This document shows, one piece after another, positions 10,403 to 34,329 of a stretch of 41,539 nt of DNA (within the stretch, counting starts at the first letter, position 1; each line of letters starts with the position of its first letter). The position numbers were made by a program, and so were the translations under genes. The stretch lies in the IMG/VR virus record IMGVR_UViG_3300048589_000132, positions 1-41,539 of that record, one strand, 5' to 3'. The notes below the pieces were generated by a model. The model was not told the DNA's origin, did not search any database, and saw nothing but the letters and a program-made list of their open reading frames with translations. This stretch comes from a virus (Duplodnaviria > Caudoviricetes).

Positions 10403-10485
10403 AAATAAAAAAACTCCCTCTCGGGAGCTTGCTGTCTTTTACAGATTAGCTAATTTGATAATAGGTACTTCTGACCAAAAGTCAA
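10403..10485 (-). promoter_or_regulatory. Promoter-leader-terminator element, copy A
   Basis: TTGACT-16 bp-TATTAT, AGCT-AAT-CTGT-aaaag-ACAG-CA-AGCT, terminator GCTCCC-gaga-GGGAGT plus T run, then ATTT-ATG. Confidence 0.8.
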
Positions 10486-10496
10486 TTGCTGGCAAT

Positions 10497-13400
10497 TTAA
10501 TTGATACTTGGTGCTGTGATCTTTACCGACTCTTGACCGAGTAATTTTAGTTTCGGTCTTGAGCTCGTTCTTGATTTTGCCTTTGGTGGATTGAAGGGTA
10601 CATACTTTGCTTTCTTGGCTCCTCCAGATTTCTTTGTCCTTTTACTAACTTGATCCTTAAATGCTTCAAGTGTGTTGTACCACTTGGATGCTTCTTCTGC
10701 GGACATATAGCCTAGTTTATACAAGTCCATTACGTCACCCTGTTTCTTTGTAAGAGTGCTCTTGTAATCTTTTAGTAGTTCCTTGTCGATTGTTTCGTTC
10801 CCCGACATCTTCGGTAACTTGAGGTCGCGCTGCAAAGGAATTGATTTAACTTCGTCTGATTCTTCATCGTAGTAGAAGACCTTGCGCTTACTTGATCTGA
10901 CTTGTCCATCACCACGCACTTGTTCTTTTACTTCATCATCGGCTGCGTTTTCTTCTCTTGTGGCAATGATTTTGCCGTAGGTATTTTTCCTTTCACTAGA
11001 ACTAACCGACTTCACCAATTCAGATTGACTCTCTCCGAGTGGCTTTCTTTTCTTGTCGTAGTATTCCTGCATTTCGGGCAAGTTATACTCTCCAAATAAT
11101 GCTCCTCTGACATAGTTGGTTGCAGTTTGATCTACTGGTGATCTTACTCTTCCTTTAGCCGTTTCCGATATTCCTTTACCGACTGTCTTTAGTCCTCCAA
11201 TAGTCTTTTTAATTTGAGTTCCGGCCGGTATCGTCAGTCCCGCAAGTTTCCCCAGCTCACGTTTTGCATTGTCTTGTTTTTGCTCATCCTCGCTTAATAG
11301 ACCTGGCGTAGCTGCTAAAGACTTCCCGACTTGTATAATGGGCGGTGTTGGCATTTTGCCTTCTGAGAAGTTTTGATAGAAGGGTATAAACTCCTTCCAG
11401 TCCATGCCGATTAGATTCCCTATACTGTAGAGTGCAGCAATAGAAGCTCCTGTATATCTGGCGAGTCCGGCTATGTCTTTATTTCTAACCATTCCACCCA
11501 AGAACTCTGCCTGCTTCAATCCAAATGATTGAAACTGGAACAACGTCTTTGTGATGTCGCCTGATAGAGCGACTGGCGTATCAACCTTCCCGAAAGTAAA
11601 CTGTGTATCCCTGACGATCTTCTTGGCATACTCAATGGCTTCTTCTTCACTAACGCCTTTTGCGAGTGCTTTACGCTTTGCTCCGAAGTATGCCGATCCT
11701 CGGTTGATCTTTTCTGCCATATCAAAGAATGTCCACAACACCTCGTCAACCTTCTCGGCCGCCTTCTTAACTGCGTGGAAGTTTCTATCTTGTATGATGT
11801 TGTCGTCTAATACTCCTACACGATACAACTCGTCAAGATTCTTGTTTGCCATCTTCGATGCTAATTCGGTGTAACCCCATAAAGTATATTTCTCGCCAAG
11901 CTTTGCGTAAGTGTTGACTCCCTGTGTCAAATTTCTAACTGCCGATCCGACATTCAAACCAAGCGTGGCTCTGTAAATCCATCGCCTCCCTTTACCAGTT
12001 AGATATGCTGTCGGCCGTTGACCGAACTTATACCCCACTGGTGACGACTTGATAAAGTTGTCTAGTAAGTTGTCAACCGTAGATGGTCGCATATTGATCT
12101 TACTCGCAACATTCTGTATGTACTTCTGATTCTCAAGAGGAATATCTTTAGATGATTCCTGTAATCGCTTTAGTGCGGGATCGAAGTTGTATTTTCTAGT
12201 TGCTCTTTTAACGTAGGCTTCAAGAGCTTTCCATGTGTCCTCGACATACCCCAACTGTCCTAAACGTTTCTCAAGGAATGGATCATAAACTGAACCTGGT
12301 ATGCGATTCTCAATGAGTTTCGCGACCTCGGGATCAAATTCTTTCTTGATAAAGTCTTGTTCAAAGATGTGTGTAATATAACTGGCTATACGTTTATCTT
12401 CGGGAAGTCCAAGTTTATCAGCCCATTGTTTCAAATATGTCTTTATTTCATTTGCAACCTTCAGCTCCTCGCCTTCAAGTTTGATGTCCTGTCCGTCGAG
12501 ATACTTGAAGATCCTCTGACTCGCCCCTTCCTGTGGCACTCTCTTTGCCCACTCCGTTATTCTTGGTATTTCCTCCTTTAGACTCGCCTTGTATGCTTCG
12601 TCTGCTTTTCTTAGCAATTTAGCTTCATCGCCTAAACCAATCTTATTTAACACAGGCTCGGGTGTACGAATGTAATCAAACAGATGAACCTTGCTTGTTA
12701 CGGGGATGTCTGAGCTTTTAACTACGTGCTCTACTGTATCTTTAATCTCTCTACTAATTGGTGGTGTCTTGGTGTCTAATCTCCTTAACGGCTTAGTTTG
12801 GAAACCGAAATTGGATAGTTTGTCTGGATTCTTGGCAGCAGTTAAGGCTTCTTCAAGGAATCTTGAGGTTGTCTTTATCCACAGATCGGGGTCTGTCGAT
12901 GTCGCTTTTCTGAAAGCCTTGTTGTTTACTACATCCGGTATTACCAACTCTCCAACCTCTCTAAGATTCTGTATAAATCCTATTTGATTCTCTTGTGGCA
13001 ATATTCTCCAGTTCTTGCTCGCTCCCACCAGCTCCTCGATCCGCTTCTCGTTATCAAGAGCTACTTTCATGCTTGATTTGGCAGACTTCCGGCTCGACGC
13101 AAACCCTGCTCCAAGAATGATTGGGAACTCTGCTATGTTAGCGATGTCTTTCAATCCACCTTTTGCTTGAAGCGCCTCACCCAGACCTGGCGTACTCTCA
13201 AGCGACGCACTCTTGATTGCTGCATCTGCGAGCTTCATAGGATCTCTCTCACCTTGTCCGTACTTCGTGAGTGCTCCCTTACTCGCGTTGTATGATCCAA
13301 ACAGTAAGTCTGAAGGGTCGGGTATTGAACCCAATATGTCAAAGCCCAGTCTCCCAACGTTCAAGGCTCTGGATTGGTTTGGCGTGGTTTTGGTCCCTGC

Positions 13401-13769
13401 AAATTCAATTGGTTTGGGGTTAGTAATCCCACTTAACGCTTTGGGTATGTCTTTTAGTGATTCATAGTACGTATTTTGCAAATAATTCCCGAAGCGATTA
13501 GCACCATAATCAACCGCTTGAATGGACTTTTTCAGTGGTTTTATGTTCTGTACGACGGGACTCTTTTGAAGTGATTGCGTAAGTCGGGGAATATTGAAGA
13601 CGAAGTCGTCTGCTTTTGATTGAGAGATTCTTTGTTTTGCCCCCTCAAACCCACCAGGTATCTTAGATTCCACGAACTGAGGTAATGCCCTAGCTTGTTC
13701 GACTACGTTAAGCCTAGAAAGCGTAGGTTGCAGTTTCTTTTTGTAGATTTCGATTAGGTTAAATGCCAT
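10497..13769 (-). CDS. Large internal virion/DNA-ejection-type protein
   Basis: 1090 aa, helical and Lys-rich, AKKIVRDTQFTF...FQFQSF motif seen in large podovirus ejection proteins; located after the tail nozzle gene. Confidence 0.6.
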   Translation of the reverse strand: MAFNLIEIYKKKLQPTLSRLNVVEQARALPQFVESKIPGGFEGAKQRISQSKADDFVFNIPRLTQSLQKSPVVQNIKPLKKSIQAVDYGANRFGNYLQNTYYESLKDIPKALSGITNPKPIEFAGTKTTPNQSRALNVGRLGFDILGSIPDPSDLLFGSYNASKGALTKYGQGERDPMKLADAAIKSASLESTPGLGEALQAKGGLKDIANIAEFPIILGAGFASSRKSAKSSMKVALDNEKRIEELVGASKNWRILPQENQIGFIQNLREVGELVIPDVVNNKAFRKATSTDPDLWIKTTSRFLEEALTAAKNPDKLSNFGFQTKPLRRLDTKTPPISREIKDTVEHVVKSSDIPVTSKVHLFDYIRTPEPVLNKIGLGDEAKLLRKADEAYKASLKEEIPRITEWAKRVPQEGASQRIFKYLDGQDIKLEGEELKVANEIKTYLKQWADKLGLPEDKRIASYITHIFEQDFIKKEFDPEVAKLIENRIPGSVYDPFLEKRLGQLGYVEDTWKALEAYVKRATRKYNFDPALKRLQESSKDIPLENQKYIQNVASKINMRPSTVDNLLDNFIKSSPVGYKFGQRPTAYLTGKGRRWIYRATLGLNVGSAVRNLTQGVNTYAKLGEKYTLWGYTELASKMANKNLDELYRVGVLDDNIIQDRNFHAVKKAAEKVDEVLWTFFDMAEKINRGSAYFGAKRKALAKGVSEEEAIEYAKKIVRDTQFTFGKVDTPVALSGDITKTLFQFQSFGLKQAEFLGGMVRNKDIAGLARYTGASIAALYSIGNLIGMDWKEFIPFYQNFSEGKMPTPPIIQVGKSLAATPGLLSEDEQKQDNAKRELGKLAGLTIPAGTQIKKTIGGLKTVGKGISETAKGRVRSPVDQTATNYVRGALFGEYNLPEMQEYYDKKRKPLGESQSELVKSVSSSERKNTYGKIIATREENAADDEVKEQVRGDGQVRSSKRKVFYYDEESDEVKSIPLQRDLKLPKMSGNETIDKELLKDYKSTLTKKQGDVMDLYKLGYMSAEEASKWYNTLEAFKDQVSKRTKKSGGAKKAKYVPFNPPKAKSRTSSRPKLKLLGQESVKITAPSIN

Positions 13770-13787
13770 ATGACTAAGGAGCTTCTG

Positions 13788-14867
13788 CTAAGCCCGATAG
13801 TCAGAAGCCGATCCAAATAATGTTGATAACAGGTTTTTGTCCTTGTCTTCCGCGAGTGCGACTGATTGTGTTTGCATCTCTTGATCTGGATTGATCATCG
13901 TGCCTTGGATTGAATCCAAGTTGGCCGCTGGATCAGCATAATCCTGTAGACTGGCTGTACTTGATGCGAGATTTGTCTTAGCAGCGTCTATCCTCATCTG
14001 CCAATCTACTACCGATGATTTGATCTCTGCGATCCTTTGAGATAGTGCAGCATTTGCGCTTCTTATTGCATCGGCTCTTTGTCGGTCATTGAACCTCAAA
14101 TCGGATTGAATCTTGTTTACCAAGTCTGTGTATTGCTGTTGTATTTGTGTAACCGCGTTTTTGTGTTCAGACATTTTGTTGTTGAAGAAATTGTCAAGGT
14201 CTTGCATTCGCATTCTGGTTGCTTCGACTATGTTGCCTCGTTGTTTGCCAAACTCAAGGTTTGCTTGTGATAGAAGTTCCCCACCCGCACTTGAATTTAA
14301 AATGCCCAATCCCCTAAGGATATTTCTATTCTTTCTTGTAACCGATTGAGCCGTGTCTGAAGCCTCGCCTATTTCTCTTTCTTTGGTTACATTTGCTCGT
14401 TCTCTTTGCGTACCGATCTCACCCTTCATGTTGTTCCAGACTTCCTCTAAGTATGATAGTGTGCTGTTCTTTTGTGCGTCTGCCGATGATTGCTGATTGA
14501 TTAGATTCTCTCTGTTGTAGTCGTATTCGGACAGTGCAGCTTGAAGTTCAGCATCTCTTTCGTCTCTGGCGGCTTGTTCAAGGTTTTGTCCTACGTCACC
14601 CACTGACGTGTTTGCCCCGAGTACGTCCTGTGTACCACCGCCCCCCGTGTTCGTTGTGTTGTTGGTTTTAACTAGCGACTGAACTGCTTTGGGAGTTAAG
14701 AAGTTTTGGTTTTGTCCATAATCGACATGTCCAGCCAGTGTGTTAGATAAATCTGTTGATTTGCCACCAGAATAAAAACTAGATAGTTTTTCGGTTAATC
14801 CCAAGTCGGGCAACTTGAAACCGCCCAAACTCCATGATCCTGCGTGTGGTTTGTTTATTAGTCCCAT
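13788..14867 (-). CDS. Coiled-coil internal virion/ejection protein
   Basis: Gln/Asn/Ala-rich coiled coil, RGLGILNSS motif, located between the nozzle gene and the large ejection protein. Confidence 0.55.
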   Translation of the reverse strand: MGLINKPHAGSWSLGGFKLPDLGLTEKLSSFYSGGKSTDLSNTLAGHVDYGQNQNFLTPKAVQSLVKTNNTTNTGGGGTQDVLGANTSVGDVGQNLEQAARDERDAELQAALSEYDYNRENLINQQSSADAQKNSTLSYLEEVWNNMKGEIGTQRERANVTKEREIGEASDTAQSVTRKNRNILRGLGILNSSAGGELLSQANLEFGKQRGNIVEATRMRMQDLDNFFNNKMSEHKNAVTQIQQQYTDLVNKIQSDLRFNDRQRADAIRSANAALSQRIAEIKSSVVDWQMRIDAAKTNLASSTASLQDYADPAANLDSIQGTMINPDQEMQTQSVALAEDKDKNLLSTLFGSASDYRA

Positions 14868-14956
14868 TAAATAAAAAAGGCAGTCTCTCGACTGCCTGCT
14901 TAGCTTCTATAAGATCGGCTATATTTGCATATTAGACTTCTGAATACAAAAGTCAA
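14868..14956 (-). promoter_or_regulatory. Promoter-leader-terminator element, copy B
   Basis: TTGACT-16 bp-TAATAT, AGCC-GAT-CTTA-tagaagc-TAAG-CA-GGC, terminator GGCAGTC-gaga-GACTGCC-T6, then ATTTA-ATG. Confidence 0.8.
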
Positions 14957-15258
14957 GAGAGTATCCACAGTCCATAAAAATATGTAGAGAAGTTGGACAA
15001 GACGACAAGTGAAGTCAGAGCAATAAACAGCCCCAAAGAAAATCGTATTGTCCTTGACTCTTTGTATCGTCGCTCTATCAGACCGAAGATGATCGCCGAA
15101 AGAAAAATCACAAATATCGGATATCCATATCCCTTATCAAAAAGAGACCTCATGAGTGGATTGGCTTCCGTTAAATGGTCGCCCACGAGAGAAAAGTTGA
15201 GAATGGTGGATATGTAGTCCAACACCTTAATCACAATCCATGCGATTGTAAACTTCAT
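14953..15258 (-). CDS. DUF5658-like membrane protein (moron)
   Basis: LDYIST...TEANPLM motif, three TM segments; own extended -10 (TGtTAAAAT) 5 nt before the ATG. Confidence 0.65.
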   Translation of the reverse strand: MKFTIAWIVIKVLDYISTILNFSLVGDHLTEANPLMRSLFDKGYGYPIFVIFLSAIIFGLIERRYKESRTIRFSLGLFIALTSLVVLSNFSTYFYGLWILS

Positions 15259-15278
15259 GGCTTATTTTAACACTGAGG

Positions 15279-17201
15279 TCAAGCAATCAAGTCCTCGCTC
15301 CTTCGATACCTCTCGGGTCTCGGCTTTGCCAACAGTTCACTTGCAAGTAATGTAAAGGATGCCCCCGAACTTCCATTGTCAAATGTCTTTTGGAAGTTTC
15401 TACCCTCTAAGTTTAGATTCTTCTTGGTCTTTAAAATGATGTCATCAGACGTAGTCACCGATCCGCTTCCGTAAGAATCACCAAACAAGAAGTCTTTGAA
15501 TGTGTAATGTTTAAAGTTGATAGTCGGGCTTACAGTTGATACGTTGGTCTGGTATTGTGTGCTTGTTCCATCTACAACAATGGCGAGGTTGATAGATCCT
15601 TGTGGCTCGCGTAGCACGACTGAAAAGTCTTTGAGCTTCTTGTAATTAGTTGACCCAGTCTTAAACGACTCGGCTCGTAGCTTGAATCTTCCTTGAATGG
15701 CTGTACCAAAGTCGTCGCTGCCGGATAGTATCTCTTTGACATAGCCTGAGTTGTCATCCCCATAAAGGAAGTGTGTCTCACCACCCGAATCGGTATACTT
15801 CGCCCAGCAGTTAGCTTGTATGTTTGTCCATTTAGTCCACGCCAATCTTTCACGATCATAGATTAAAGCTTCTGAGTTGTAAGTACCGCCGCTTGGTGTA
15901 TAGGCGAATATCACAAGATTTGTATTACCAGTGGTAGCGTAGGTAGCCGAAATGTTGTCGAGTCTCGTTGGTTCTATGGCCTGAAACAAACTCCTTACCT
16001 TGGCTGATATTTCATTTGTCCTGAGGATGTCGAAAGCAAACCCCGCTTCGTGTCCGAGTGAAAATACACCTCTTCTTGAAGCGAAGAATATGTCATTCTC
16101 TACGGCGATTATTGATCGTGGCGCGATACATCCCACAGCTGGATTGACTTGCTCGATCTGTGGTAGTCCGCTTGTTGTGAAACTGAAACTGTAAATAGAT
16201 TCGTCTTTAAAAACAATGAGGGAGTCCTTGAATACGATCATTCCAGTAATGACCTGACCATCGTTCTTTGCTACGTCTATAAATCCTCCTCCGCTTTCGA
16301 TTGTGAAGTCATTTATTTTATCTCCACCACCTGAATAGAAGAGCCTTGATGGATTGTCGGGATCACCCGCGATAAACAGCGAATCTTTATATAGCGCACA
16401 ATATTTACCCTTCTGACCTCCTGTTGAGTTGCCTTGCGGTGGCTGAAAAACCTCTTGAGGAGTGTCCAATCCTTTATCCACGTAAGTAACTGAAGAATTA
16501 CCCTCCAAGTATTTCATGAAGTACCATCGTCCGTCTTTGCGGCCATAGACGTTGTAACCGACTGCTCCCGTAACAGCTCCCCAAAGTACAGTCATGTAAG
16601 TAGATTCGTCTAGTTCGTCTACGTTGGCTACTTCAGAGTCTGCGTCTGATGGTGTGGTTTCGCCCACATCTGTGACTGCCGTAACCTTGTAAGAAAACGT
16701 ATACGTTCCTGTCGTGCCAGTTCTCGTAACAGAAGTGATTGTCGGTGCGCTTCGCTGTGTGAATGTGGTGATCGAAGTTCCATCGTAGTAGGTAAGATCA
16801 TCTGTACCGTTACAAACATAGAGCCTGTCGTAACCCATGACCGCCTGTGTATCAAGACCTGTTGTGTAAGTTTTGCCCGAAATATTGTCCCAATTTGATG
16901 TACTGGTATTTAGTTTCTGTAATGCCGTTCCTGCGGTTCTTACTAGCTCCCTTGTGCCATCTGATTTGTAATAGGGATAGAGTCCCACGACCTTTGTGCC
17001 AGATGAATTACCGTAGTAAATCTGACCCTCCCTGGGACACTGTACCTTGCCATCTTCCACAATCTGTACATTGGTGGCTTCTGCTAGTTCGTTATTCTTT
17101 ATTTGTGTTGGAGATACTAGGGTATTAAGACCTCTTATCCACGATTCGTTTCGCTCAATAAGTGGCTTTCGTTTTGTCTTGGGTACGTCATACTTCCTCA
17201 T
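15279..17201 (-). CDS. Tail tubular/nozzle protein (P22 gp10 / T7 gp12-like beta-propeller) with FN3-like insert
   Basis: RGLN...ATNV N-terminus, propeller repeats (DRLYVCNG, DSLFIAG..NPSRLFYS, GCIAPRSI, IFFASRRGVF), YSYKVTAV...GET / GYNVY insert. Confidence 0.75.
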   Translation of the reverse strand: MRKYDVPKTKRKPLIERNESWIRGLNTLVSPTQIKNNELAEATNVQIVEDGKVQCPREGQIYYGNSSGTKVVGLYPYYKSDGTRELVRTAGTALQKLNTSTSNWDNISGKTYTTGLDTQAVMGYDRLYVCNGTDDLTYYDGTSITTFTQRSAPTITSVTRTGTTGTYTFSYKVTAVTDVGETTPSDADSEVANVDELDESTYMTVLWGAVTGAVGYNVYGRKDGRWYFMKYLEGNSSVTYVDKGLDTPQEVFQPPQGNSTGGQKGKYCALYKDSLFIAGDPDNPSRLFYSGGGDKINDFTIESGGGFIDVAKNDGQVITGMIVFKDSLIVFKDESIYSFSFTTSGLPQIEQVNPAVGCIAPRSIIAVENDIFFASRRGVFSLGHEAGFAFDILRTNEISAKVRSLFQAIEPTRLDNISATYATTGNTNLVIFAYTPSGGTYNSEALIYDRERLAWTKWTNIQANCWAKYTDSGGETHFLYGDDNSGYVKEILSGSDDFGTAIQGRFKLRAESFKTGSTNYKKLKDFSVVLREPQGSINLAIVVDGTSTQYQTNVSTVSPTINFKHYTFKDFLFGDSYGSGSVTTSDDIILKTKKNLNLEGRNFQKTFDNGSSGASFTLLASELLAKPRPERYRRSEDLIA

Positions 17202-17202
17202 T

Positions 17203-17886
17203 TTAATAGTTGCCTATGCTTCTTGGTTTATCCGCGCTGACATAACTGCCCATAGCATAGTGCTGGTTGACGTGTGGTGTATTTTCCCATCCCATCTCCT
17301 CGTTGATGATTTGTTCGGCTAGTGCTTTCTCTTCCCTTCCCTCGTCGCGTTCATCCTCGGACATTAGTAACTCGCCGCAAGCATCACGCGCTAGAGCTTC
17401 TAGGTTCACACAATACACACTATCCGTTGTTGATGTTCTCTCGGGCGGCAGCCAAAAATAAGAATAGGTAATAGTCACTCCGCTTTCGGGCGCGGGATTG
17501 ATATACATCTTCCACAGATCATTAACTGAGTCGTACCACTGATAAACCATACGAGAGGAGTTGTTTTCGTTATAGAGTTTTTTAAATTGGTGATAATCGA
17601 CAACATCATACCGATTGCTCTCAAGTGTGCCGTCAACAAATACTTCACTAAGACCCTTGAGTCGTGCTGGATTGGTTGCAGATCCAAGCGTGTAACTGTT
17701 TACTCCGCTTCCTGTGGTTGTCTGATTGGGAAGTATAAATAATTGCCACAATAACCTGCGTGCTATTGATTGTTCACTTCTACTGACTGCTCGCACTCTT
17801 CTTGCGCTAGTGTCGGTAGTAGATTCACCACGATAGTCTGAAACCATCTCTAATATGTCTGCGACTGTTGCTTTGTATAAGGTCAT
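17203..17886 (-). CDS. Head-tail adaptor / tail tubular protein A-like
   Basis: Size, position just upstream of the nozzle gene, YINPAPESGVTITYSY motif. Confidence 0.65.
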   Translation of the reverse strand: MTLYKATVADILEMVSDYRGESTTDTSARRVRAVSRSEQSIARRLLWQLFILPNQTTTGSGVNSYTLGSATNPARLKGLSEVFVDGTLESNRYDVVDYHQFKKLYNENNSSRMVYQWYDSVNDLWKMYINPAPESGVTITYSYFWLPPERTSTTDSVYCVNLEALARDACGELLMSEDERDEGREEKALAEQIINEEMGWENTPHVNQHYAMGSYVSADKPRSIGNY

Positions 17887-17970
17887 AAATAAAAAAAGAC
17901 GGGTTCTACCCCGCCTGCACTGCTTTAGTGATCGACTGATTCAAATTAACACTTTGCGATCAAAAGTCAA
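17887..17970 (-). promoter_or_regulatory. Promoter-leader-terminator element, copy C
   Basis: TTGACT-16 bp-TAATTT, AGTC-GAT-CACT-aaagc-AGTG-CA-GGC, terminator GGCGGG-gtagaa-CCCGTC-T7, then ATTT-ATG. Confidence 0.8.
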
Positions 17971-18021
17971 TTGTCCATCAATAGGTATGAATTAGCGGCC
18001 GATGGGGAGTTGATTTACAAT

Positions 18022-18049
18022 CCTGATCTGATTTTAAAATCCGGTCAGG
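18022..18049. promoter_or_regulatory. 28-bp imperfect palindrome upstream of the restriction endonuclease gene
   Basis: CCTGATCTGATTTT|AAAATCCGGTCAGG, 12 of 14 positions complementary, covering a TAAAAT -10-like hexamer. Confidence 0.55.
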
Positions 18050-18055
18050 TGCCAG

Positions 18056-19021
18056 ATGAAGCAAGTTCTACCCAAACTGCCTCCACTACTCGATAGGAAA
18101 ATTTATAAAACTGGACAGACCCGAGGGGCTGATGATGACGTTATCTACCAAAATCGTGTTGGTAGAAATTCAACCGTCTTAATACCTTACTACTTTTGGG
18201 GACAGCCTTCTCTTTTTCCCGATGATGGATTTGTAAACGGCTATATTGTCTTGATCAGTCCCAAGACATATTTCGATTCTCCGTCGAAACTGATTGAACA
18301 AAATCTTGTACTTGGACAAAATTGCATCGTCTTTTACGAAACCAGATCGGACTGGGAGTTATACAACCCCGAAAAACTTGGATGGATACCAGCACAAAGC
18401 AGAATAGCCCCACTGGGAGGGCATTATGTTGCCAGAATCCCAGCCACTACAGCAAGAGCACACGGTGAAAAAATCAACCGAGGATTTACATCCACCAGTG
18501 GCAAGGGCGCGGGTATCAGACTTTACGAATATGCAAGTACGTCAGTTATAGCTAGCTGTCGTCTACAATTGGAGGCGATTTTTTGGCTATGCTTCAATTC
18601 GGTCGAAACCGTTAGTAGTAACGGAATGAGCAGGGAGGCGGCAGAACATCGCAAAAAAACTATTCTCAATAACTGCCGGCAACTAAATCTGCTTGATATA
18701 GAGCAACTAACCCAAGCAAGAATTTTGAATAATCGGGGCAATACAGTTTGCCCTCTTTGTCTGGATGAATTATCGGGAACGGGATTTTTAAACAGACTAA
18801 TTCAGGCAGAAGGCCGTGACGTGCCAGACCTTACGGTAACGGAAATAAATCTCTTTCATATAGAAGAATTGAGGTACGGAGTCTACAACCACAGGCCGTA
18901 CAACTTGGGATGGGGCCATCATCATTGCAACGTGGTTACAAAAGATGATGGTGTGATAAACACACTTATCTGGATGAAGCGAGTGCTTGAACGAAACCGC
19001 GAATTGGGGTTTGAAAGTTAA
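18056..19021 (+). CDS. Type II restriction endonuclease, BstXI-like (HNH-type)
   Basis: N-terminal RKIYKTGQTRGADDDVIYQNRV.RNSTVLIPY as recalled for the BstXI family; CPLC...LFHI...HRPYNLGWGHHHCN; convergent with a methyltransferase. Confidence 0.75.
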   Translation: MKQVLPKLPPLLDRKIYKTGQTRGADDDVIYQNRVGRNSTVLIPYYFWGQPSLFPDDGFVNGYIVLISPKTYFDSPSKLIEQNLVLGQNCIVFYETRSDWELYNPEKLGWIPAQSRIAPLGGHYVARIPATTARAHGEKINRGFTSTSGKGAGIRLYEYASTSVIASCRLQLEAIFWLCFNSVETVSSNGMSREAAEHRKKTILNNCRQLNLLDIEQLTQARILNNRGNTVCPLCLDELSGTGFLNRLIQAEGRDVPDLTVTEINLFHIEELRYGVYNHRPYNLGWGHHHCNVVTKDDGVINTLIWMKRVLERNRELGFES

Positions 19022-20091
19022 AAAAGCCTCGTCTGATACTGTTCCAAGGTCATTGATTTTGAAACGTAGTTGTTGGGGAAAATGGTGTAATCTTTATCGC
19101 TTACAAACTCTAGTACTCTTGCGATCTTTTTGCACCACTTTTCCTCGATTTCTATTGAGACTGACCCCCTCCCCAATTTCATGGCCGCAATTGCAGTTGA
19201 ACCAGAGCCAGCGAAGCAATCTAGCACAATATCATCGGGATAAGTTGTGGCTGCTATCGCGTGTTCTAATAGAGCTATTGGTTTTTCTGCCGGATGTTTC
19301 CCACTATAAGGTCGGATATTGGGAAACGTCCAGACATCAATGAACTCTTTGGTTTTATCTACATTGAAAGGGCGCACAACGTCTTGGTAGTCCGGCATCT
19401 CCATTCCGCTGACTTGCTTAATTGCCTTTCTTAATTTCTCGTATTGTTCTACGCTGGGGACATTTCTACCCGCCTCCCAGTTGGAAACGGCTCCTCCATG
19501 ATTAACTTTTCCGTGCGCACCTATCATTTCAGTCAGGGATTTACAGGAAAGCCCCGACTTTTTTCTGTATTCCCTTATTAAGTTGCCGAAATATGACCTG
19601 TAAAGATTCCCATGTGTGGCTGGTTCAGTAAAGATGATCCTTTCTGAGTGGTCATACCACTGTCTTAGAGCATCCTTACTCATTTTCTGTTTCCAGCCGT
19701 CAAATCCTGGTTCGTTCGGTTTTGTCCAGACAATGTGAGAAAGGATATTAAAATCACCAGAAAATACACCCTCCAATCTTCCGGCCATTGAGGGGGAACA
19801 GAAACAGAACATCGAGCCGTTTGGCTTTAAAATTCTGATCCATTCTTTTGAGTACTGAGCCATCCATTCAAGGTAATGCTCGTCCTCTTTAAATGCTGTG
19901 TCGCCGTAAATATTTTTCTTGCCGGTTGTGTGATATGGCGGATCTGTGAGGATCAAAGAGACAGAATGGTCTGGAAATTTTTTAAGCACTTCCAGCGAAT
20001 CGCCCTCATACAAGATACCTCTAGGTGTCACACAATAAGGCGCTTGATCAATATTCGCAATTAACTCATTTAGTTTTACTGGGGTGTCCAA
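19018..20091 (-). CDS. Beta-class N4/N6 DNA methyltransferase with an inserted Xre-type HTH
   Basis: DPPY motif, HPAEKP, DCFAGSGST; internal LIREYRKKSGLSCKSL...AVSNWEAGRNVPS HTH. Confidence 0.9.
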   Translation of the reverse strand: MDTPVKLNELIANIDQAPYCVTPRGILYEGDSLEVLKKFPDHSVSLILTDPPYHTTGKKNIYGDTAFKEDEHYLEWMAQYSKEWIRILKPNGSMFCFCSPSMAGRLEGVFSGDFNILSHIVWTKPNEPGFDGWKQKMSKDALRQWYDHSERIIFTEPATHGNLYRSYFGNLIREYRKKSGLSCKSLTEMIGAHGKVNHGGAVSNWEAGRNVPSVEQYEKLRKAIKQVSGMEMPDYQDVVRPFNVDKTKEFIDVWTFPNIRPYSGKHPAEKPIALLEHAIAATTYPDDIVLDCFAGSGSTAIAAMKLGRGSVSIEIEEKWCKKIARVLEFVSDKDYTIFPNNYVSKSMTLEQYQTRLF

Positions 20092-20136
20092 TCCTAATCA
20101 ACCCTTGAAGTGTTTTTAGTACATATATTCTACCAC

Positions 20137-21402
20137 TTATCTCGCAAACGGTATAAATCCACTCCCCAAGAAGTCTTTGATTACTGTAATTGATCCTGCT
20201 GTATAGGTGGCGTAGATGGATAATTTTTGCGTTTTGCTTCCAGACGCAACTAGCCAAGGGCTCTCTGGAGAAGCATATTTGAAAGAACCAGAGCTATATG
20301 CTTCACTATAACCTGCCCTAGCAGTTACGGTGTCGTAGTCTAATGTTATAGACTCGCCATCGGCAATCTCTGATGAATTTGTTTCGGCATTTAAAATATA
20401 ATCAACTGCACTTATTGATTCTCCACCAGCAGTAAAATCTGTAAATGCGGCTTTGGCAAATGTGGTATTTGCCACTTCGACAACAGCAACCTGCCCGTGA
20501 TTTCCCGAACCTCCACTGTCTTTTGTATTCAAAAATACTTTAATATCTCTACTCGCAGTAGAATTAAATACACCCGATATTTTATCTAATGTTCCAACCG
20601 CTCCTGCATAAATATCACCAAGTCTTGATTCAGTCCAAGTTTCAAACATATCGTTTCTGCCTGCAATTCCTGCACTTGAGCCCCCATTTGTCGTATACCC
20701 AAACGTAGGATCAACCACCACTGGGTAGACAGCATTGTCCAAGAACTTTTGATCTACAGTTACGGTTAGAATCCCCGCTTCTACATCAACATTCAAATCT
20801 GCGTAAATACCATCCCCGTTAGCGTCATAAGCGAATGGTCTGTAGATGTGGAAGGCTTTACCAGCCTTGTATTCCATTCCATCGGCTCGGTTCATTCCAC
20901 CCTTAGTCTTGTGATAAACAGCGTAAGAACCAGCCACATCATCGGGTCTTGAACCGCCCTCGTCTATTTCCTTTTGTGTAAGTTCGGGTTGGTAGAAGAA
21001 GTCCAGTCCTTTGGTTTGGAGCGTGAACTCGAACTTGTTTGTGTCGGGTTTTTCTTTTAGGAGTAGCTCTATCTCAAGTCCGCCATCTTCCAACCCCTCT
21101 TTGGGATCAAGGTCGTAAGCACGAAACTCGGTCTTTGGTTTGACATACTTGATTACTTTGCCCTCAGTCCTTATCTGAGCTTCGCCTAGCTCTGTGTCTA
21201 CATATCTGAATGAAGCGTTAACTTCGTTGTCCCACCGCATCACCTTTACTTGAGGTAAAAAACTGTCTGGAGTTTTGGAGTCACCGATTTCTACTTCGAT
21301 TCTGTCCTTGGGGTTCGACTTCTTTTCCTGAATAAAAGTGTTATCCCGCTTTTCGTAGTTCTGCGAGATTGTGTTTGAAACTCTGTTTGGTATCTTTGCC
21401 AC
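20137..21402 (-). CDS. Putative virion structural protein
   Basis: Located in the tail region; YPVVVDPTFGY linker followed by a Gly/Ser/Thr-rich beta domain. Confidence 0.55.
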   Translation of the reverse strand: MAKIPNRVSNTISQNYEKRDNTFIQEKKSNPKDRIEVEIGDSKTPDSFLPQVKVMRWDNEVNASFRYVDTELGEAQIRTEGKVIKYVKPKTEFRAYDLDPKEGLEDGGLEIELLLKEKPDTNKFEFTLQTKGLDFFYQPELTQKEIDEGGSRPDDVAGSYAVYHKTKGGMNRADGMEYKAGKAFHIYRPFAYDANGDGIYADLNVDVEAGILTVTVDQKFLDNAVYPVVVDPTFGYTTNGGSSAGIAGRNDMFETWTESRLGDIYAGAVGTLDKISGVFNSTASRDIKVFLNTKDSGGSGNHGQVAVVEVANTTFAKAAFTDFTAGGESISAVDYILNAETNSSEIADGESITLDYDTVTARAGYSEAYSSGSFKYASPESPWLVASGSKTQKLSIYATYTAGSITVIKDFLGSGFIPFAR

Positions 21403-21410
21403 TATTCAAA

Positions 21411-21905
21411 TTAAATTTCATATCCTACACAAGTGACAATTTGTTTACATTTCGAAATAAATTGTTCGTGTGTCAGATTCCACTTCATGTGATTGCAAAC
21501 CCCACAACACGGTTGCATGTTCCCATCAATATATCCTTTTGAGTTGTCTATTCTGTCAATTCCTGTTGCCGAACCCCCACAGTAAATACATTCACTTTTA
21601 AGAAACTCATCCATTTGTTTTAGTGTTACTTCAAAAACCATATTCTTTTTCTTTGCGTTCGCCCTATAAGTTCGTAACTTCAATTTAACGGGATCTGAGC
21701 CCTTGCCTGTACCCTTATTCCAAGATGGCTGACCTTTGTAAAATCTTCCCTTTTCAGAAAATGGTTTATGTCCCTTCTGAAACCCCTCATTTAATTGATG
21801 CCTCCTTCCCCTCTGAGCCTTACTGATCGCATCTTTCACATGTTGAGGTCTGGGCTTACTAACAGCCTTGTACCAGTTCTCAGACCTCTGGACTTTACTT
21901 GACAT
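21411..21905 (-). CDS. Free-standing HNH homing endonuclease with NUMOD-like N-terminus
   Basis: CIYCG..GIDRIDNSKGYIDGNMQPCCGVCN; ISKAQRG and FQKGH.P / FYKGQPSWNKG repeats; own promoter TTGACA(21935-40)-18 bp-TATCAT(21911-16) 5 nt before ATG 21905. Confidence 0.85.
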   Translation of the reverse strand: MSSKVQRSENWYKAVSKPRPQHVKDAISKAQRGRRHQLNEGFQKGHKPFSEKGRFYKGQPSWNKGTGKGSDPVKLKLRTYRANAKKKNMVFEVTLKQMDEFLKSECIYCGGSATGIDRIDNSKGYIDGNMQPCCGVCNHMKWNLTHEQFISKCKQIVTCVGYEI

Positions 21906-21944
21906 AAGATATGATAACAAATCTCATATCCCGCTGTCAAATCC

Positions 21945-24356
21945 TCATACTTCATAGCCGACCACGGTGCAATATACATTTCCCGCCGTGGTAGTTATGG
22001 TTAGGTCGGCTGCGTCTTCGCCTGACGCCATTGGGTATCTCTCTGTGAAACTTAGAACTACACCAGAATTGGCTGCAATTTCACCCTTCCATACAGGATC
22101 ATCTCCACCTGCTTTATCATCTTCGAGGGTTACCGTAGCTGCTGCTGAAACATTGATATACATCGTTACTACGTGCCATCTCTTACCTACTGCTGGACTC
22201 CAGATGATTCCATCTGTGGCTGCTCCCGCACTTGTGTAGTATTTGCGTGCATAGTTGGTGTGATCAGTTATGTCTCTGTCTGGCGGGGAGACGTTGACAG
22301 TCCCTCCAGCAACATCTACTTCAAGAGAAGTTGAGCCGGTAGCAACAATCAATCCACCTTCTGCGGTTAGCGAAAGAGGTGCAACATCCCCATCAGTAAC
22401 AGTATTCCCTCCAGAGTTATATACCCCACCAACCAATAAATGCTTACTTGTATTGTCTGTCCAGTCTGCATCATCTGCGTAAACCGCATCATCAAGGAGT
22501 TCAACTGCCGTCTTAATTGCCCCTGAATTAGTCTCGGTTATTGCACCGCTTGTTACAGTTACATCGTTATTGGCTCCAAGATCAACCGTTAAAGATCCGT
22601 CTACAGTTATTGAATTACCGCCGTCTTGGATATTTACTGCGGCTGCGCCACCCGCATTGTTGATCGTTACGTCACCGATATCAGTACCAGTAACCAGTTT
22701 GGCATTGATAGTGTCCAAAACAGCGTCAATAGTGTCTAAGACAGCATTATCTGTTGCAGAAAGTTCGGCGGTTACAGTTCCGTCTACAGTCAAAGATCCA
22801 CCTGCGTCTGATATTGGAAGAGGTGCAGAATTGCTTACAACACTAACCGCACTTGTCCCCGTGTTACTTTCAAACATCAAAGCAGTACCCGTAATAGAAG
22901 CATCAGTGTCACCTTCGGTATATTGTGTGCCACCACCAAAACTCGTGATCTGGTCTCCGTTACCGTCTACGATTGCAACTGCTGCGGGGTTTGAATTAGT
23001 AAGATCGAGCTGGTCTACCACCCCCACATCTCCATGGACTGTTACGGTGTCCGATGCTGAGGATAAATCACGTATGTCAAGATTTGTGGCCTGAACTGTA
23101 GTTGTAGGCATAGTTAAAACGTCAACCTGCATTTCGGTTCCGCTTATGGCGTTATCGATGATCTCTACAGCCGTCTTAATGGATGATGCTGTCGTTTCCA
23201 GTGCGAGTGCTGAAGTGTTTAAGTTGGTGCCAGCGTTAGCGGTTACTGTTGAAACTGGTGTAAGCGTGGTCATTTGTGCTGCCGTTAATACGACTGGCAC
23301 TGAAGCTGCTGCTAAAGCCTGACCAAGTGCGGGGGTCTTGGTGTCTATCGAGCCGAGAGAGGTTTCAATACCGTCTACATGACCGATAACAGTTGTAAGG
23401 TCTGCGTCTATGTTGTCGAGTACGGCATTGTCAGTTGCACCGAGATCAACTGTTCCAGTAACTGTCACATCATTGTTTGATCCAAGATTTACCAATAGTC
23501 CATCTGCTACAGTTCCTTGTAAGGGTTCGATAGCATCCCCTGCAACCTCCATCATTGCTACCGTTCCTGTTATAGAAGCATCTGTTGCATCCTCGGTGTA
23601 TTCAACTCCACCGCCACCGCCAGTTACTGTTAGTGTTCCCTCAACTGCTGTCTCAATGGCTGCTGTTGAAGCTGCTATTGCGTCTAGTACTGCATTGTCG
23701 GTAGCTCCCAAGTCGGCAGTTACTGTGCCGTCTACTGTGATAGCCCCACCGTTATCATCCACACTAACAACACCAGTAGAGTTGTTAGCAATAGTTACCC
23801 TTAGAGCACCTGTTTCAGTTCCACCGCCGACTACCGTTCCGAAGTCCGTGTTGGTTTCTATTGTGGGTAGATTGCCAGTGTCTGTGTCGATTGTTCCCAG
23901 TAGTGTTTCAACGCCGTCTAGGTGTCCAATTACCGTTGTTTGATTGGCTGCCGTTGAAGCTCCAGTGGGTAGTGCGGAGCTAACCACATCGACCTGCATT
24001 TCTGTACCGTCAACTGCTCCAGCAATTGTTGTTGTATCGGTCTCAATGGCATCAAGTACGGCATTGTCTGTTGCGCTTAAATTAGCCGTGACTGTTCCTG
24101 ATACCGATTCTGTGGTTGATCCAGTTTCTACAAGTATCTGTAACTTGTCGGCATCTGCCATTGAAGTTGTGTCGTAAGTGAGGGTTAGTGTTGTTCCAGA
24201 AAGTGTCCCGCCCTTGGTTGCATCTGCAAAATTGTAGATGATTATGTTATCAGTGACATTCGTTATTAGCTGTATTGCCTCTAAACTTGTAAACAAATCA
24301 CAATCAATCGTCTGTTCTGAAGCGTCAAATGTATATGTAGTTGCTCTTACTTTCAT
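21945..24356 (-). CDS. Long repetitive acidic tail-fibre-like protein
   Basis: 803 aa, Thr/Asp/Gly-rich; four L(S/G)ATDNAVLD repeats, two EMQVDV, two YTE..TDASITGT. Confidence 0.65.
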   Translation of the reverse strand: MKVRATTYTFDASEQTIDCDLFTSLEAIQLITNVTDNIIIYNFADATKGGTLSGTTLTLTYDTTSMADADKLQILVETGSTTESVSGTVTANLSATDNAVLDAIETDTTTIAGAVDGTEMQVDVVSSALPTGASTAANQTTVIGHLDGVETLLGTIDTDTGNLPTIETNTDFGTVVGGGTETGALRVTIANNSTGVVSVDDNGGAITVDGTVTADLGATDNAVLDAIAASTAAIETAVEGTLTVTGGGGGVEYTEDATDASITGTVAMMEVAGDAIEPLQGTVADGLLVNLGSNNDVTVTGTVDLGATDNAVLDNIDADLTTVIGHVDGIETSLGSIDTKTPALGQALAAASVPVVLTAAQMTTLTPVSTVTANAGTNLNTSALALETTASSIKTAVEIIDNAISGTEMQVDVLTMPTTTVQATNLDIRDLSSASDTVTVHGDVGVVDQLDLTNSNPAAVAIVDGNGDQITSFGGGTQYTEGDTDASITGTALMFESNTGTSAVSVVSNSAPLPISDAGGSLTVDGTVTAELSATDNAVLDTIDAVLDTINAKLVTGTDIGDVTINNAGGAAAVNIQDGGNSITVDGSLTVDLGANNDVTVTSGAITETNSGAIKTAVELLDDAVYADDADWTDNTSKHLLVGGVYNSGGNTVTDGDVAPLSLTAEGGLIVATGSTSLEVDVAGGTVNVSPPDRDITDHTNYARKYYTSAGAATDGIIWSPAVGKRWHVVTMYINVSAAATVTLEDDKAGGDDPVWKGEIAANSGVVLSFTERYPMASGEDAADLTITTTAGNVYCTVVGYEV

Positions 24357-24739
24357 AGTGCAGTTGCGTAAGCGATAGCCAGTACCTCTGATATTCCACC
24401 AGAAGCTATGGTTTCAATTTTGTCATAGACTGCGTTTTTGCTTGGTGCTACGTCTGTAACACCGTTCCATCCAGCACCATAAGCTGCGTCTGAAATTGAT
24501 GCACTTGCTCCCGTGGCTCCTGTATCGCCCTTCTCTGCCAGTACCTGCCAATATGTTGTATTTGTAGGAACTGTCCCCGCCGCCGCATCGTTAAACATCA
24601 CGTAAGAAGAACCATTGTAATCAACAGAATCACCAACTGCGTAATCCGTTCCAGCTGCGTATGCACCCTTTGGCACTAATCCACCAGTAATATTTGTGAT
24701 ATTTAGTGGATCGATCAGTTTGACTACTTGAAATCCCAT
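24353..24739 (-). CDS. Virion protein with a CBM5/12-like motif and short collagen repeat
   Basis: KGAYAAGTDYAVGDSVDYNGSSYV...YWQVLAEKGDTGATG. Confidence 0.65.
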   Translation of the reverse strand: MGFQVVKLIDPLNITNITGGLVPKGAYAAGTDYAVGDSVDYNGSSYVMFNDAAAGTVPTNTTYWQVLAEKGDTGATGASASISDAAYGAGWNGVTDVAPSKNAVYDKIETIASGGISEVLAIAYATAL

Positions 24740-24740
24740 G

Positions 24741-25076
24741 TTAGCTATAAGTTAAAGCCGTTAAATCAGTCGCTACGTTATCAAAGGAACTATCTCCGTC
24801 TGCCCAAGTTAGCACGACCCCGCCAGACGAATCGATCTTATACGCTTGCCACTTGGCCGTAGCTTGTGCTGTACCAGGAGCAGCGACTGCGACATAAGTG
24901 ATAGTTCCAACAGTTGTGACTTTCAATGCAGTTGAATCTGCTATCGACCTTTGTACATTTACGCCATCATATCCAAGTGGCTGTACAACTGGAACTTGAA
25001 ACTCTGGATCAAACCCAAGATTCTCAATATGTGGTATCGAGTAGGGTTTGGTGTGTTGACCTGTATTTACTGCCAT
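24741..25076 (-). CDS. Putative structural protein
   Basis: TYVAVAAPGTAQATAKWQ...WADG pattern; in the structural operon. Confidence 0.55.
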   Translation of the reverse strand: MAVNTGQHTKPYSIPHIENLGFDPEFQVPVVQPLGYDGVNVQRSIADSTALKVTTVGTITYVAVAAPGTAQATAKWQAYKIDSSGGVVLTWADGDSSFDNVATDLTALTYS

Positions 25077-25573
25077 ACTTTGTAATTTTCCATCTCTTCT
25101 AGCACTGTCTTGTTGATATCCTTTGTCGTCTCAAGAGTTGCTAGTTTCATAAATACTTTCTGTCGTTTGTCGTCGTCCTTGATAAACGATAAGTCTCTCC
25201 AAGCATTTATGACCGAACTGAGTCGCTTGATAAAGATATCGGGTGCTACATTCTCGGGTAACCCCATGTCTTCCTTCAGACTGTTCAATTTCTTTTTAAA
25301 AGCGTCTACTGTCTCGTCTTGACCTTCTTTGTTTAATATCTCGACTACATACCTACGTATATCGTCAAGCGACTTCTGATCTTCCGATTCAATCTCGCTT
25401 GCGTCATCTGATAATCCAAGTGCTTCTAAAACGATATTTCCAGCTCGTTCTTCCTTAAACTCAATCGGCTCAATTCCCTCAAGGTTTATCTCTGCTCCGT
25501 ATAGGTTCGGTTCGACATCTTCGCCCACTGGAACTGGCGGTGTTGGCGTGCTCGATCTAAATACGGTACTCAT
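25067..25573 (-). CDS. Hypothetical protein, first gene after leader copy D
   Basis: ORF starts directly after the repeated leader element. Confidence 0.65.
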   Translation of the reverse strand: MSTVFRSSTPTPPVPVGEDVEPNLYGAEINLEGIEPIEFKEERAGNIVLEALGLSDDASEIESEDQKSLDDIRRYVVEILNKEGQDETVDAFKKKLNSLKEDMGLPENVAPDIFIKRLSSVINAWRDLSFIKDDDKRQKVFMKLATLETTKDINKTVLEEMENYKVWQ

Positions 25574-25658
25574 AAAACAAAAAAGCCAAGTTTCCTTGGC
25601 CTGCGACTGATTATCGTTCAGCTATCTAGGGTATATCATTCGTAATGGCTCGGGTCAA
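25574..25658 (-). promoter_or_regulatory. Promoter-leader-terminator element, copy D
   Basis: TTGACC, TGaTATACC, AGCT-GAA-CGAT-aatca-GTCG-CA-GGC, terminator GGCCAAG-gaaa-CTTGGCT plus T run, then GTTTT-ATG. Confidence 0.75.
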
Positions 25659-32148: not shown

Positions 32149-34084
32149 TTTGTAAAGGATTTGCTAAAGGATTCCCCATCGGTTCTCCCAGAGCCATGTC
32201 CATTTCCTCCTGTCCCAGTGGTTGTGTTGCTGCGCCTCCTGTTGGGTCTTGTGGTTTCATTTCTTCAACAACATCATTCATCTCAATACCCAGATTCAAC
32301 TTGTCAAACAGTTTCTCGGTCAGACTTGAATAATTAAGTTTCTTGTTCTCCATCGCCAAGCCTTGCACCCAATCGGGGTCTTTAACCCTATCGAGTGCTA
32401 GGAAGAAGTTTTGCTCAAGGACAGTCGGATCCATAACCGCCTCGCTTGAAGTGGTTGCGATGAAATCATAATTGCCCACGATTGCGGGTTGTATATCTTC
32501 GGGAGACAAATTAAGGAAGGCGAAGTTACCGCCTTTGCCTATCTCCAGCTTAGACTTGCTGTCGTCACCTGGCACAATCGGCTCACCCTCCATTGTGGTT
32601 TGAGATAGATCGGTATTCTCTCTGAGTTGCCTTATCTTGTCTTTGCCGACAATCCTCACCTGTTGCTCTTCTGTGGTGAACTGTATACGCAAGTCCTTCC
32701 ATTGATTAGCGATCCTCTCGACAACCATGTGATTGAATAGCTGTATCTTTAACTTGAACTGTGCGTTTGCTTCTTGCTGAATTAGCCTTGTGCCGGTTGC
32801 TGTCTTGTTGGCTACGTTAGATTGATTGTCTATGCCTATGGTGTAGTCGGTGATACCGCTTCCGTTTTGAAGTGCGCTTGTTAGATAGTTCATGGTATTA
32901 ACAAACGTTCCGCCCGTTACGTCTGGAACTTGAAGCATCTCTACCGAACTCATGTCATCAGTTGAGACCACATTACCAGGTGCTGAGTACAGGGTATTAA
33001 GATCAACTCCCGAGTTCTTTTTGATCTTCCACATCGTGTTGAGTGTTAGCTGTACGTTGTCGAGCCTCTGATTCAGTACTGCATTGATAGCTCGTTGTAT
33101 ACGATCAATCGGTTCGATCTCCCCCATGCCATATAGTTCACCGGGATAGGGATAATCAACTCCATAGATAATTGGCAGCTCTCCATGAAAGTAGGGGTTC
33201 TCAACTTCTCGGATGATTAAGTTTCCGTATTCGGGAGCCACGAATACCCAAGATTCTCTGGTGTATCTGACAAGTATGGTGATGTCTGGATTGCTTTCAT
33301 CTTCACCCAGAAGCTCTTGGGTAGACAACATTGTGCGACGATGTTCCCTGTACTGAATCTGATCTGGTCTATCCCCACCCGATTTACTTTCCCTATTCTT
33401 GGCGTCAATTGCTTCTTCTAACTTATCTAAGTTCTTCCAGTATTCCATTCCCCTAGTGTCATTCTCTCGTTTCAACTCATCGAGTGTTTTAAAAGCACGA
33501 TAGATAAACCACCTCATGTTATCTAAGTGTGTGGCGTTGGGGTCTGGATAGCAATCGTAGATATTAAGCACCTCAAAGTTTGGCGCATCGTACTCTGTTA
33601 CTTTGATTATCTTTTTCTCTTTAGGAGTCCAGACGAGTCTGCCATTGAGTTTCTTTGGAACCATTTGGTATCTGTCGCGTTCTCTGAAATCCCAATATGT
33701 GCGACCAAATGAAGTACCGAAGATCAGCATAGATTTAACGTAGCGTACAAGCTTCTCGAACATATTCGCTTGATTCCAGTCGTATTTGATTAGCGCGTTT
33801 AGTATCTCGGCCGTGTTCTCGTCTGATGATTCTGCGGGGTAGAATGAACCCGTAGGCTCACTCGCTACCATGCGGGGCGTTATTGTTTCTATTACTCTAA
33901 ATATTCTCGGATCAAATACTTTAGCTCCGTGTGGATAATTTTCTTTGTCGAGGTATGTGCGGTACAGCTCCTCTTGGCTGTTCATTCTCTCGTGAATGGG
34001 ATCAAGATATCTCTTGGCCAACTGGAATTGTTCGTCTATCTCTTTCCCAAGTTCCTGCTCGTCCTTTGTGGTCTTGTATGGCAT
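32123..34084 (-). CDS. Portal protein (P22-like)
   Basis: AEILNALIKYDW, MLIFGTSF, YDCYPDP, ENPYFHGELP, YGMGEIE, KTATG; likely ATG at 34084. Confidence 0.88.
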   Translation of the reverse strand: MPYKTTKDEQELGKEIDEQFQLAKRYLDPIHERMNSQEELYRTYLDKENYPHGAKVFDPRIFRVIETITPRMVASEPTGSFYPAESSDENTAEILNALIKYDWNQANMFEKLVRYVKSMLIFGTSFGRTYWDFRERDRYQMVPKKLNGRLVWTPKEKKIIKVTEYDAPNFEVLNIYDCYPDPNATHLDNMRWFIYRAFKTLDELKRENDTRGMEYWKNLDKLEEAIDAKNRESKSGGDRPDQIQYREHRRTMLSTQELLGEDESNPDITILVRYTRESWVFVAPEYGNLIIREVENPYFHGELPIIYGVDYPYPGELYGMGEIEPIDRIQRAINAVLNQRLDNVQLTLNTMWKIKKNSGVDLNTLYSAPGNVVSTDDMSSVEMLQVPDVTGGTFVNTMNYLTSALQNGSGITDYTIGIDNQSNVANKTATGTRLIQQEANAQFKLKIQLFNHMVVERIANQWKDLRIQFTTEEQQVRIVGKDKIRQLRENTDLSQTTMEGEPIVPGDDSKSKLEIGKGGNFAFLNLSPEDIQPAIVGNYDFIATTSSEAVMDPTVLEQNFFLALDRVKDPDWVQGLAMENKKLNYSSLTEKLFDKLNLGIEMNDVVEEMKPQDPTGGAATQPLGQEEMDMALGEPMGNPLANPLQNGQQPAQY

Positions 34085-34119
34085 GTCAAATTTACTAATA
34101 TACTTTGCTAGACCTCGGG

Positions 34120-34329
34120 TCAAGTACGTGGCTTCAACCAGTGCTCACCTTTCCAAAAATCCATCTTCACTACTTCCCCTTCTCTAACCTCAATGCGTAT
34201 GTCGATTGTGCCAAATTGGATCTGTGTTGCCTCTTCTTCGATCTTGATAAGATGCGGTTTTGTGTCTTTTAAATGATTAGCCCACTCAACTGCCGTCATT
34301 TTAGTGTTACTGTCAATTTTTAGTTTCAT
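34120..34329 (-). CDS. YezD/DUF2292-like small protein
   Basis: IEEEATQIQFGTIDIRIEVREGEVVKMD resembles the (F/Y)G-x-(I/V)-x-I-x-V-x-x-G-x-V pattern of DUF2292. Confidence 0.5.
   Translation of the reverse strand: MKLKIDSNTKMTAVEWANHLKDTKPHLIKIEEEATQIQFGTIDIRIEVREGEVVKMDFWKGEHWLKPRT

Follow-up and report, generated by a model that had tools for sequence, protein, structure and literature searches.

The window, i.e. the whole 41.5-kb stretch of DNA analysed here, is a single virus record (IMGVR_UViG_3300048589_000132) and derives from an uncultured phage. Comparison of its 59 proteins with PHROGs and Pfam identified, on the minus strand, genes for terminase, a P22/SU10-type portal, the major capsid protein and further virion and lysis proteins. 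Four short leaders, each composed of a promoter, a small hairpin and an overlapping terminator, head genes encoding proteins of 168, 227, 359 and 314 amino acids (aa). An unannotated gene for a 69-aa DUF2292/YezD-like protein, the candidate antiterminator for these leaders, lies at the end of the terminase genes, ahead of the portal gene (Table 1). The leader-headed blocks would be, in this order, tail-fibre-like, tail, putative ejection and fibre/lysis genes, several of these labels deriving from position and weak matches. Terminase, portal and capsid genes of the window phage have no leader upstream.

Anatomy of the four leaders

The four copies had been described in an earlier note made from the letters alone (the sequence-only reading). 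All are found where it placed them, on the minus strand, with -35 hexamers starting at 10485, 14956, 17970 and 25658. The TTGACY promoters have a spacer of 16 nt in three copies and of 17 nt in copy 4, and the hairpin lies 5-8 nt past the -10 hexamer. The leaders are 45-48 nt long, and their antiterminator hairpins (25-27 nt) contain one 3x2 internal loop each. The upper stems agree with the earlier description, with one G-U pair in copy 4, and the lower stem is indeed made from the first bases of the terminator: the first 4 are shared, including the A of the CA in the loop, and the overlap amounts to 4-5 nt in the four copies. Predicted energies range from -11.0 to -13.9 kcal/mol for the terminator versus -3.6 to -4.5 kcal/mol for the hairpin; when the window copies are folded, the terminator prevails and the lower stem has a probability of at most 0.004, in line with the default termination which had been proposed. 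In the four copies the U-tract ends 4-5 nt before an ATG devoid of a Shine-Dalgarno (SD) sequence, as claimed; this part does not extend to several relatives, where an AGGAG-like site follows the U-tract.

A covariance model used without filters scores the window copies at 35.5-47.6 bits, all four being part of its training set, and reveals no fifth copy in the window, the next match being at 14.6 bits. Searching with a pattern built on the copies is circular; it yields 4 matches versus 0.0 in 300 shuffles. Promoter-like and terminator-like sites, taken alone, are not above chance in the window. The non-circular support for the leaders comes from related podoviruses, in which they are found again with compensatory changes. 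A check against Rfam, which the sequence-only reading had suggested, relates the leaders to no characterised family: Rfam 15 detects only tRNA in the whole window at gathering score and nothing on the leaders at E<=10 (positions 10300-26000), while 18 related loci gave, at E<=1, chance-level microRNA and long non-coding RNA matches only, far under gathering scores.

The late promoters, both those of the four leaders and the one starting at 34123, as well as those of relatives, feature weak -10 boxes and a phage-specific 5-nt extension after TTGAC, the identity of these five bases being 0.74 within a phage versus 0.36 between phages. The extension may be a site for a late activator, providing a second layer of control at initiation.

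Table 1. Coordinates of the leader elements, the small gene and the portal promoter within the window
Feature	Position	Strand	Remarks
Copy 1, sigma70-like promoter	10458..10485	-	TTGACT-16-TATTAT
Copy 1, antiterminator hairpin	10427..10451	-	3x2 loop between a lower stem of 3 bp and an upper stem of 4 bp
Copy 1, terminator-like hairpin and U-tract	10407..10430	-	before 314-aa virion protein, LamG protein, holin-like gene, endolysin
Copy 2, promoter	14929..14956	-	TTGACT-16-TAATAT
Copy 2, antiterminator hairpin	14894..14920	-	
Copy 2, terminator and U-tract	14873..14897	-	before genes of 359 and 1090 aa, probably for ejection proteins as judged by position and weak PHROG matches
Copy 3, promoter	17943..17970	-	TTGACT-16-TAATTT, weak -10
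Copy 3, antiterminator hairpin	17913..17937	-	
Copy 3, terminator and U-tract	17891..17916	-	before conserved 227-aa gene and 640-aa virion structural protein
Copy 4, promoter	25630..25658	-	TTGACC-17-TATACC, weak -10
Copy 4, antiterminator hairpin	25599..25623	-	
Copy 4, terminator and U-tract	25579..25602	-	before conserved 168-aa gene and tail-fibre-like genes
Portal promoter without leader	34084..34123	-	10-nt -35 region identical to copy 4; relatives usually have a leader here
69-aa DUF2292/YezD-like protein, candidate antiterminator	34120..34329	-	start overlaps stop of terminase C-terminal open reading frame

Conservation of the leaders and joint loss with the small gene

Loci fetched through the 640-aa virion protein provided 49 further leader copies. 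In the resulting training set of 53 copies, including the four of the window, 97% of cells are paired and two-sided changes affect 125 cells, the set having been selected on pairing. Portal loci were collected as well: 147 were returned, 120 of which are close relatives with a portal start, and 77 were left after requiring at least 380 nt upstream and removing duplicates. Here the leaders were picked by position and terminator only and, once two training copies were removed, 61 were available. A strict architecture, defined as lower stem, 3-nt side, upper stem and C-N, fits 48 of the 61, versus a mean of 13.0 (maximum 22) in 200 shuffles and of 15.7 (maximum 24) in 200 swaps. RNAalifold, applied to a sequence-only alignment of the same leaders, predicts the upper stem, its four base pairs having 8, 32, 16 and 26 changes on both sides.

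The RAW/CA loop, earlier held to be constant, is not so across relatives, where it takes the form R-H-W/C-A. On its 3' side the C is invariant and the next A nearly so; on the 5' side, in the 62 of 67 copies that were parsed, R is found in 56, followed by A, U or C and then by W (60/62). The loop-closing pair is C-G in 39/48 and A-U in 7/48. The terminator arm almost always begins at, or adjoining, the A of CA, so that the overlap is fixed at 4-5 nt, and a run of about 5-8 U stands behind the hairpin in nearly all copies. A greater likeness of loop triplets within phages (0.60 vs 0.43), considered as a sign of a phage-specific ligand, was rejected, the upper stem being likewise more alike within phages (0.39 vs 0.28). 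In one locus (L006), two leaders (10393-10446, minus strand, and 10589-10641, plus strand) face apart and flank an insert in the 640-aa gene region.

Thirteen of 16 close relatives have an orthologue of the small gene in the corresponding position, and in every one of them promoter, hairpin, terminator and portal come next. In a table of 76 non-redundant portal junctions, gene and leader are both present in 62 and both absent in 8, while five junctions, including that of the window phage, have the gene only and one the leader only (Fisher 5.7e-7, on rows which are not independent). Locus L209 (42% identity) was left out of this table, and a -9.0 hairpin inside the small gene of L165 was counted as no leader. 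The portal is thus gated in 63/76 relatives; the head genes of the window phage are not, and the earlier statement that all virion operons are switched on together has to be restricted.

In a portal tree built quickly from 76 rows, with L209 included and L173 omitted as too short, the 8 double losses are scattered and require 8 changes, at least 5 of them forced by well-supported branches. In the double-loss phages the promoter located between gene and leader survives, so that a single deletion does not explain the joint loss. The loss extends to distant operons: three geneless genomes (G015, G017 and G013) have no leader there either, and geneless L152 has none in its 18.6 kb. TTGAC-type promoters right before the ATG are mostly kept in geneless phages, in G017 at three distant operons.

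All window open reading frames of at least 40 aa were screened in the same perspective. Only 34120-34329 is present in 11/11 leader-bearing and in 0/3 leaderless relatives, several of the records being incomplete, and the screen is matched by the outcome of a profile search in these records. Four metagenome loci in each of two sets were searched for leader and gene within the fetched stretches. A phage-encoded factor acting in trans, as postulated by the sequence-only reading, is therefore supported by the comparative evidence, and the gene family co-occurring with the motif, which it had proposed to look for, is found in the 69-aa DUF2292-like gene, the specific candidate for that factor.

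The 69-aa protein and chromosomal DUF2292 loci

A single-sequence homologue search with the small protein returned only itself, and a profile search gave 109 representatives. No match was found in GenBank phages by tblastn with an orthologue, and the Atlas lead for the protein stayed under its bar. HHalign relates it to chromosomal DUF2292 (93.4%, E 2.5e-7, 38 columns): the helix, the G-x-(V/I)-(E/D) turn and the beta-hairpin align to members of the family, and residues G40, R49, G51, V53, K55 and W64 are retained in the window protein. The OscA profile (NF033785) is matched by 3/108 relatives. By these profile comparisons the 69-aa family is a remote relative of DUF2292, and not a member of it by Pfam score.

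The AlphaFold2 model is a helix-helix-beta-hairpin (H13-23, H25-36, E41-49, E52-61) with a predicted local distance difference test (pLDDT) value of 84; no sequence or fold match was found in the PDB, the best Z being 2.7. A homodimer model joined via the first strand scores 0.55, versus 0.00 for the best control, and its runs share at least 94% of their contacts, pLDDT being 84 or higher; the mark used for homodimers is reached by 20/30 solved pairs and by 1/23 single chains. The modelling favours a dimer without proving it.

In distant phages (about 30% identity) the covariance model finds nothing below E 0.4, and the hairpin-terminator leaders present there are differently shaped. Five of eight distant portal loci (L073-L080) have a DUF2292-like gene. 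Three phages, G021 (L125-L126), G026 (L137-L138) and G022 (L129), carry a longer DUF2292-like gene ahead of the portal, as well as two or three leaders apiece, in which the hairpin preceding the terminator has a shape specific to the phage.

A close relative of the window phage lies inside a 1.3-Mb assembly (G028), and the host is likely to belong to the Patescibacteria. DUF2292 is found above the Pfam cut-off in 82/301 genomes of the class of G028, the likely host class; one of the 82, G365, was left out of further use. Downstream of the DUF2292 gene a sister hairpin, GCU-GA-CCG-CAAA-CGG-A-GGC, occurs in 28/29 loci, versus 4.7% of shuffles. These hairpins (L292-L320, L143) mostly overlap a terminator, with the start codon well beyond the U-tract, and precede mostly proteins of 150-420 aa with signal-peptide-like starts, 11/12 of which have no match in Pfam. 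Chromosomal and phage hairpins have the same lower stem, and the 3x2 loop of the phage would correspond to the GA/A loop of the host with one further pair open. Elsewhere, PF10055 was not found in 121 genomes of the phylum of G031, and the two covariance-model matches in 151 genomes of the Pacebacteria phylum were discarded, both being plain terminators without the hairpin.

In the literature searched, no mechanism was found for DUF2292/YezD/OscA, nor any link of the family to antitermination or description of the motif; several searches were swamped by unrelated words, and the supplement of PMC5737381 may bear on novelty. The term DUF2292 is absent from 8 supplements of PMC8040213. The oscA gene is co-transcribed with a downstream sulfate-binding gene, according to the available part of PMC3596284. 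New elements of this analysis are the candidate trans factor, the repeated joint loss on the tree, the loss at distant operons and the gene screen with a single candidate.

The proposed switch, its alternatives and its surroundings

The 69-aa protein probably binds the small hairpin as a dimer, enabling read-through into tail, ejection and lysis genes. Transcription would start at or near the 5' base of the hairpin, which would form the first 25 or so transcribed bases and fold before the 3' arm of the terminator exits the polymerase. Unaided, the terminator is predicted to win, in which case each promoter would yield a short dead-end RNA. The dimer would recognise the 3x2 loop (C then A, with a mostly C-G closing pair) and hold the lower stem; with both clamped, the bottom pairs of the terminator could not form, and the polymerase would continue into the tail, ejection and lysis genes. 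Since the small gene ends the terminase operon, its product would accumulate once the packaging genes are on and act as a timer, the overlap of its start with the terminase stop delaying the switch. In most relatives the leader would also gate the portal, directly behind the small gene; in the window phage, where head genes are ungated, the production of heads would precede that of tails and lysis proteins.

A broader proposal is favoured with somewhat less confidence: DUF2292/YezD/OscA would be an undescribed family of minimal RNA-binding antiterminators, of which phages of ultra-small bacteria carry a re-tuned copy, orthogonal to that of the host (3x2 instead of GA/A), serving as one-gene master timer of up to seven late operons and distinct from Q, N, put, sigma factors and DNA-binding activators. 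If true, this would provide a mechanism for a widespread protein family of so far undefined function, a new phage route to late-gene timing, and a protein-RNA ON switch of very small size (69 aa and 25 nt), whose natural variants may not cross-react. The DUF2292 Pfam family also matches in Bacillus subtilis, which makes it testable in a laboratory strain. The window itself offers one protein and four natural targets, with leaderless relatives as natural controls.

Several observations weigh against the proposed switch. Joint loss shows a functional link, and neither direct binding nor the step which is controlled. Near-complete geneless genomes are only two (G015, 94%; G017, 100%). The other gene-only junctions (L165, L187, L205 and L251) have no leader in the 3-8 kb examined, a distant phage (G027) and locus L144 contain a DUF2292-like gene with no leader seen adjoining it, and L191 has two leaders and no gene within its 4.8 kb. 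The strict architecture is missed by 13 of the 61 portal leaders, for which RNAalifold does not predict the lower stem. Finally, the window protein itself has no Pfam match, remaining under the 22-bit cut-off of PF10055, which only 17/108 relatives match at E<=0.1 (best 8e-5).

Among the alternatives, an action of the small protein on RNA polymerase, as for N, Q or P7, with the hairpin as loading site or as target of a host co-factor, accounts equally well for the joint loss, and suits a small protein whose fold has no PDB match; the 5-nt extension after TTGAC could even be its DNA loading site. It is nonetheless unlikely. Each operon has its own hairpin-terminator with fixed overlap, needless for a processive system, and the -35 extension is retained in phages lacking both gene and leaders, so that it is not tied to antitermination.

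The leaders might instead be leaky attenuators without a phage ligand, or be read by the DUF2292 protein of the host, the phage gene merely co-travelling with them. The frequency of DUF2292 in the likely host class, the lower stem common to both hairpins and the leaders of L191, with no gene in view, would fit; this is rendered improbable by the loss of leaders, along with the gene, at operons many kb away, and by the different loops of phage (3x2) and host (GA/A), the phage model scoring at most 16.5 bits on host loci.

Slightly less credit still is given to translational control, in which the hairpin would lie in the ribosome footprint of an SD-less start codon and be opened by protein binding. 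In many copies 0-5 nt separate the U-tract from the ATG, and the four of the window are SD-less. The 5-8 U are however found after the hairpin even in copies with an AGGAG-like site and a spacing of 10-25 nt, and host start codons are located well past the U-tract. That the terminated RNAs of about 47 nt are themselves the functional products, as small RNAs or protein decoys, is very improbable: although every copy is a full promoter-to-terminator unit, the copies stand directly before the same structural genes across phages, and the lower stem is predicted to be open in the terminated RNA (probability <=0.004), so that the conserved fold would be lost.

Binding of the hairpin by the 69-aa protein thus remains the preferred explanation, and the leaders with the small protein would be a new form of protein-dependent antitermination. 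In lambda N/nut and Q/qut and in HK022 put, the polymerase is modified processively from one site, and Q gates the late genes. The phage leaders resemble these systems in timing genes via read-through of a promoter-proximal terminator, and differ in having a local hairpin-terminator switch per operon, which argues against processive read-through. No N or Q homologue was detected by PHROGs and Pfam among the 59 window proteins, where a diverged one could be missed.

The resemblance is closer to the BglG/LicT/SacY/GlcT antiterminators and their ribonucleic antiterminator (RAT) targets: in the available portions of PMC3575810 and PMC12591593, these too feature a short hairpin with asymmetric internal loop, overlapping the 5' arm of the terminator and stabilised by a protein dimer, as proposed for the phage switch. 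This type of overlap, pointed out by the sequence-only reading, is found in the four copies and in the portal leaders of relatives, and is backed by the comparative evidence. According to PMC3575810, RAT hairpins measure 29-35 nt, contain two internal loops, both asymmetric, and overlap the terminator by 5-15 nt, versus 25-27 nt, one 3x2 loop and 4-5 nt in the phage. The cognate BglG/SacY proteins contain a CAT domain and usually PRDs, whereas the 69-aa helix-helix-beta-hairpin has neither; they control sugar operons, whereas the phage switch would control late genes. No CAT or PRD match was found by Pfam among the window proteins. Homology to RAT was dropped for these reasons (one loop instead of two, no CAT protein), in agreement with the earlier statement that the leaders do not match it: the phage switch, as proposed, works like BglG/RAT and falls outside that group by hairpin shape and protein domain.

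ANTAR and HutP are likewise RNA-binding proteins that prevent a leader terminator, as the phage factor would, and have dual-hairpin targets according to Table 1 of PMC12591593, seen in part, versus the single hairpin of the phage leaders. Pfam detects no ANTAR domain in the 59 window proteins, and the phage leader is not of ANTAR type. The chromosomal DUF2292/YezD/OscA genes (PF10055, NF033785) are similar to the phage gene both in protein profile and in being followed by a hairpin-terminator; they differ in the RNA loop and in the Pfam score.

Some neighbouring features deserve mention. The terminase large subunit is split over two open reading frames (34326-36208, minus strand), with an HNH endonuclease gene (34972-35433) in between and without any match to an intron family at Rfam gathering score. 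A BstXI-like restriction endonuclease gene (plus strand), which diverges from the copy 3 promoter, and a DNA methylase gene (minus strand) are inserted among the tail genes (18056-20091). At the left end, a tRNA-Met with promoter and terminator (39-182) adjoins a HerA/TraG-like ATPase gene (2219-4439), possibly marking a prophage junction or a second mobile element. A GroES-like gene and two glycosyltransferase genes lie right behind the capsid gene (25655-29680, minus strand) and are kept in most close relatives, in several of which the GroES gene is gated by a leader.

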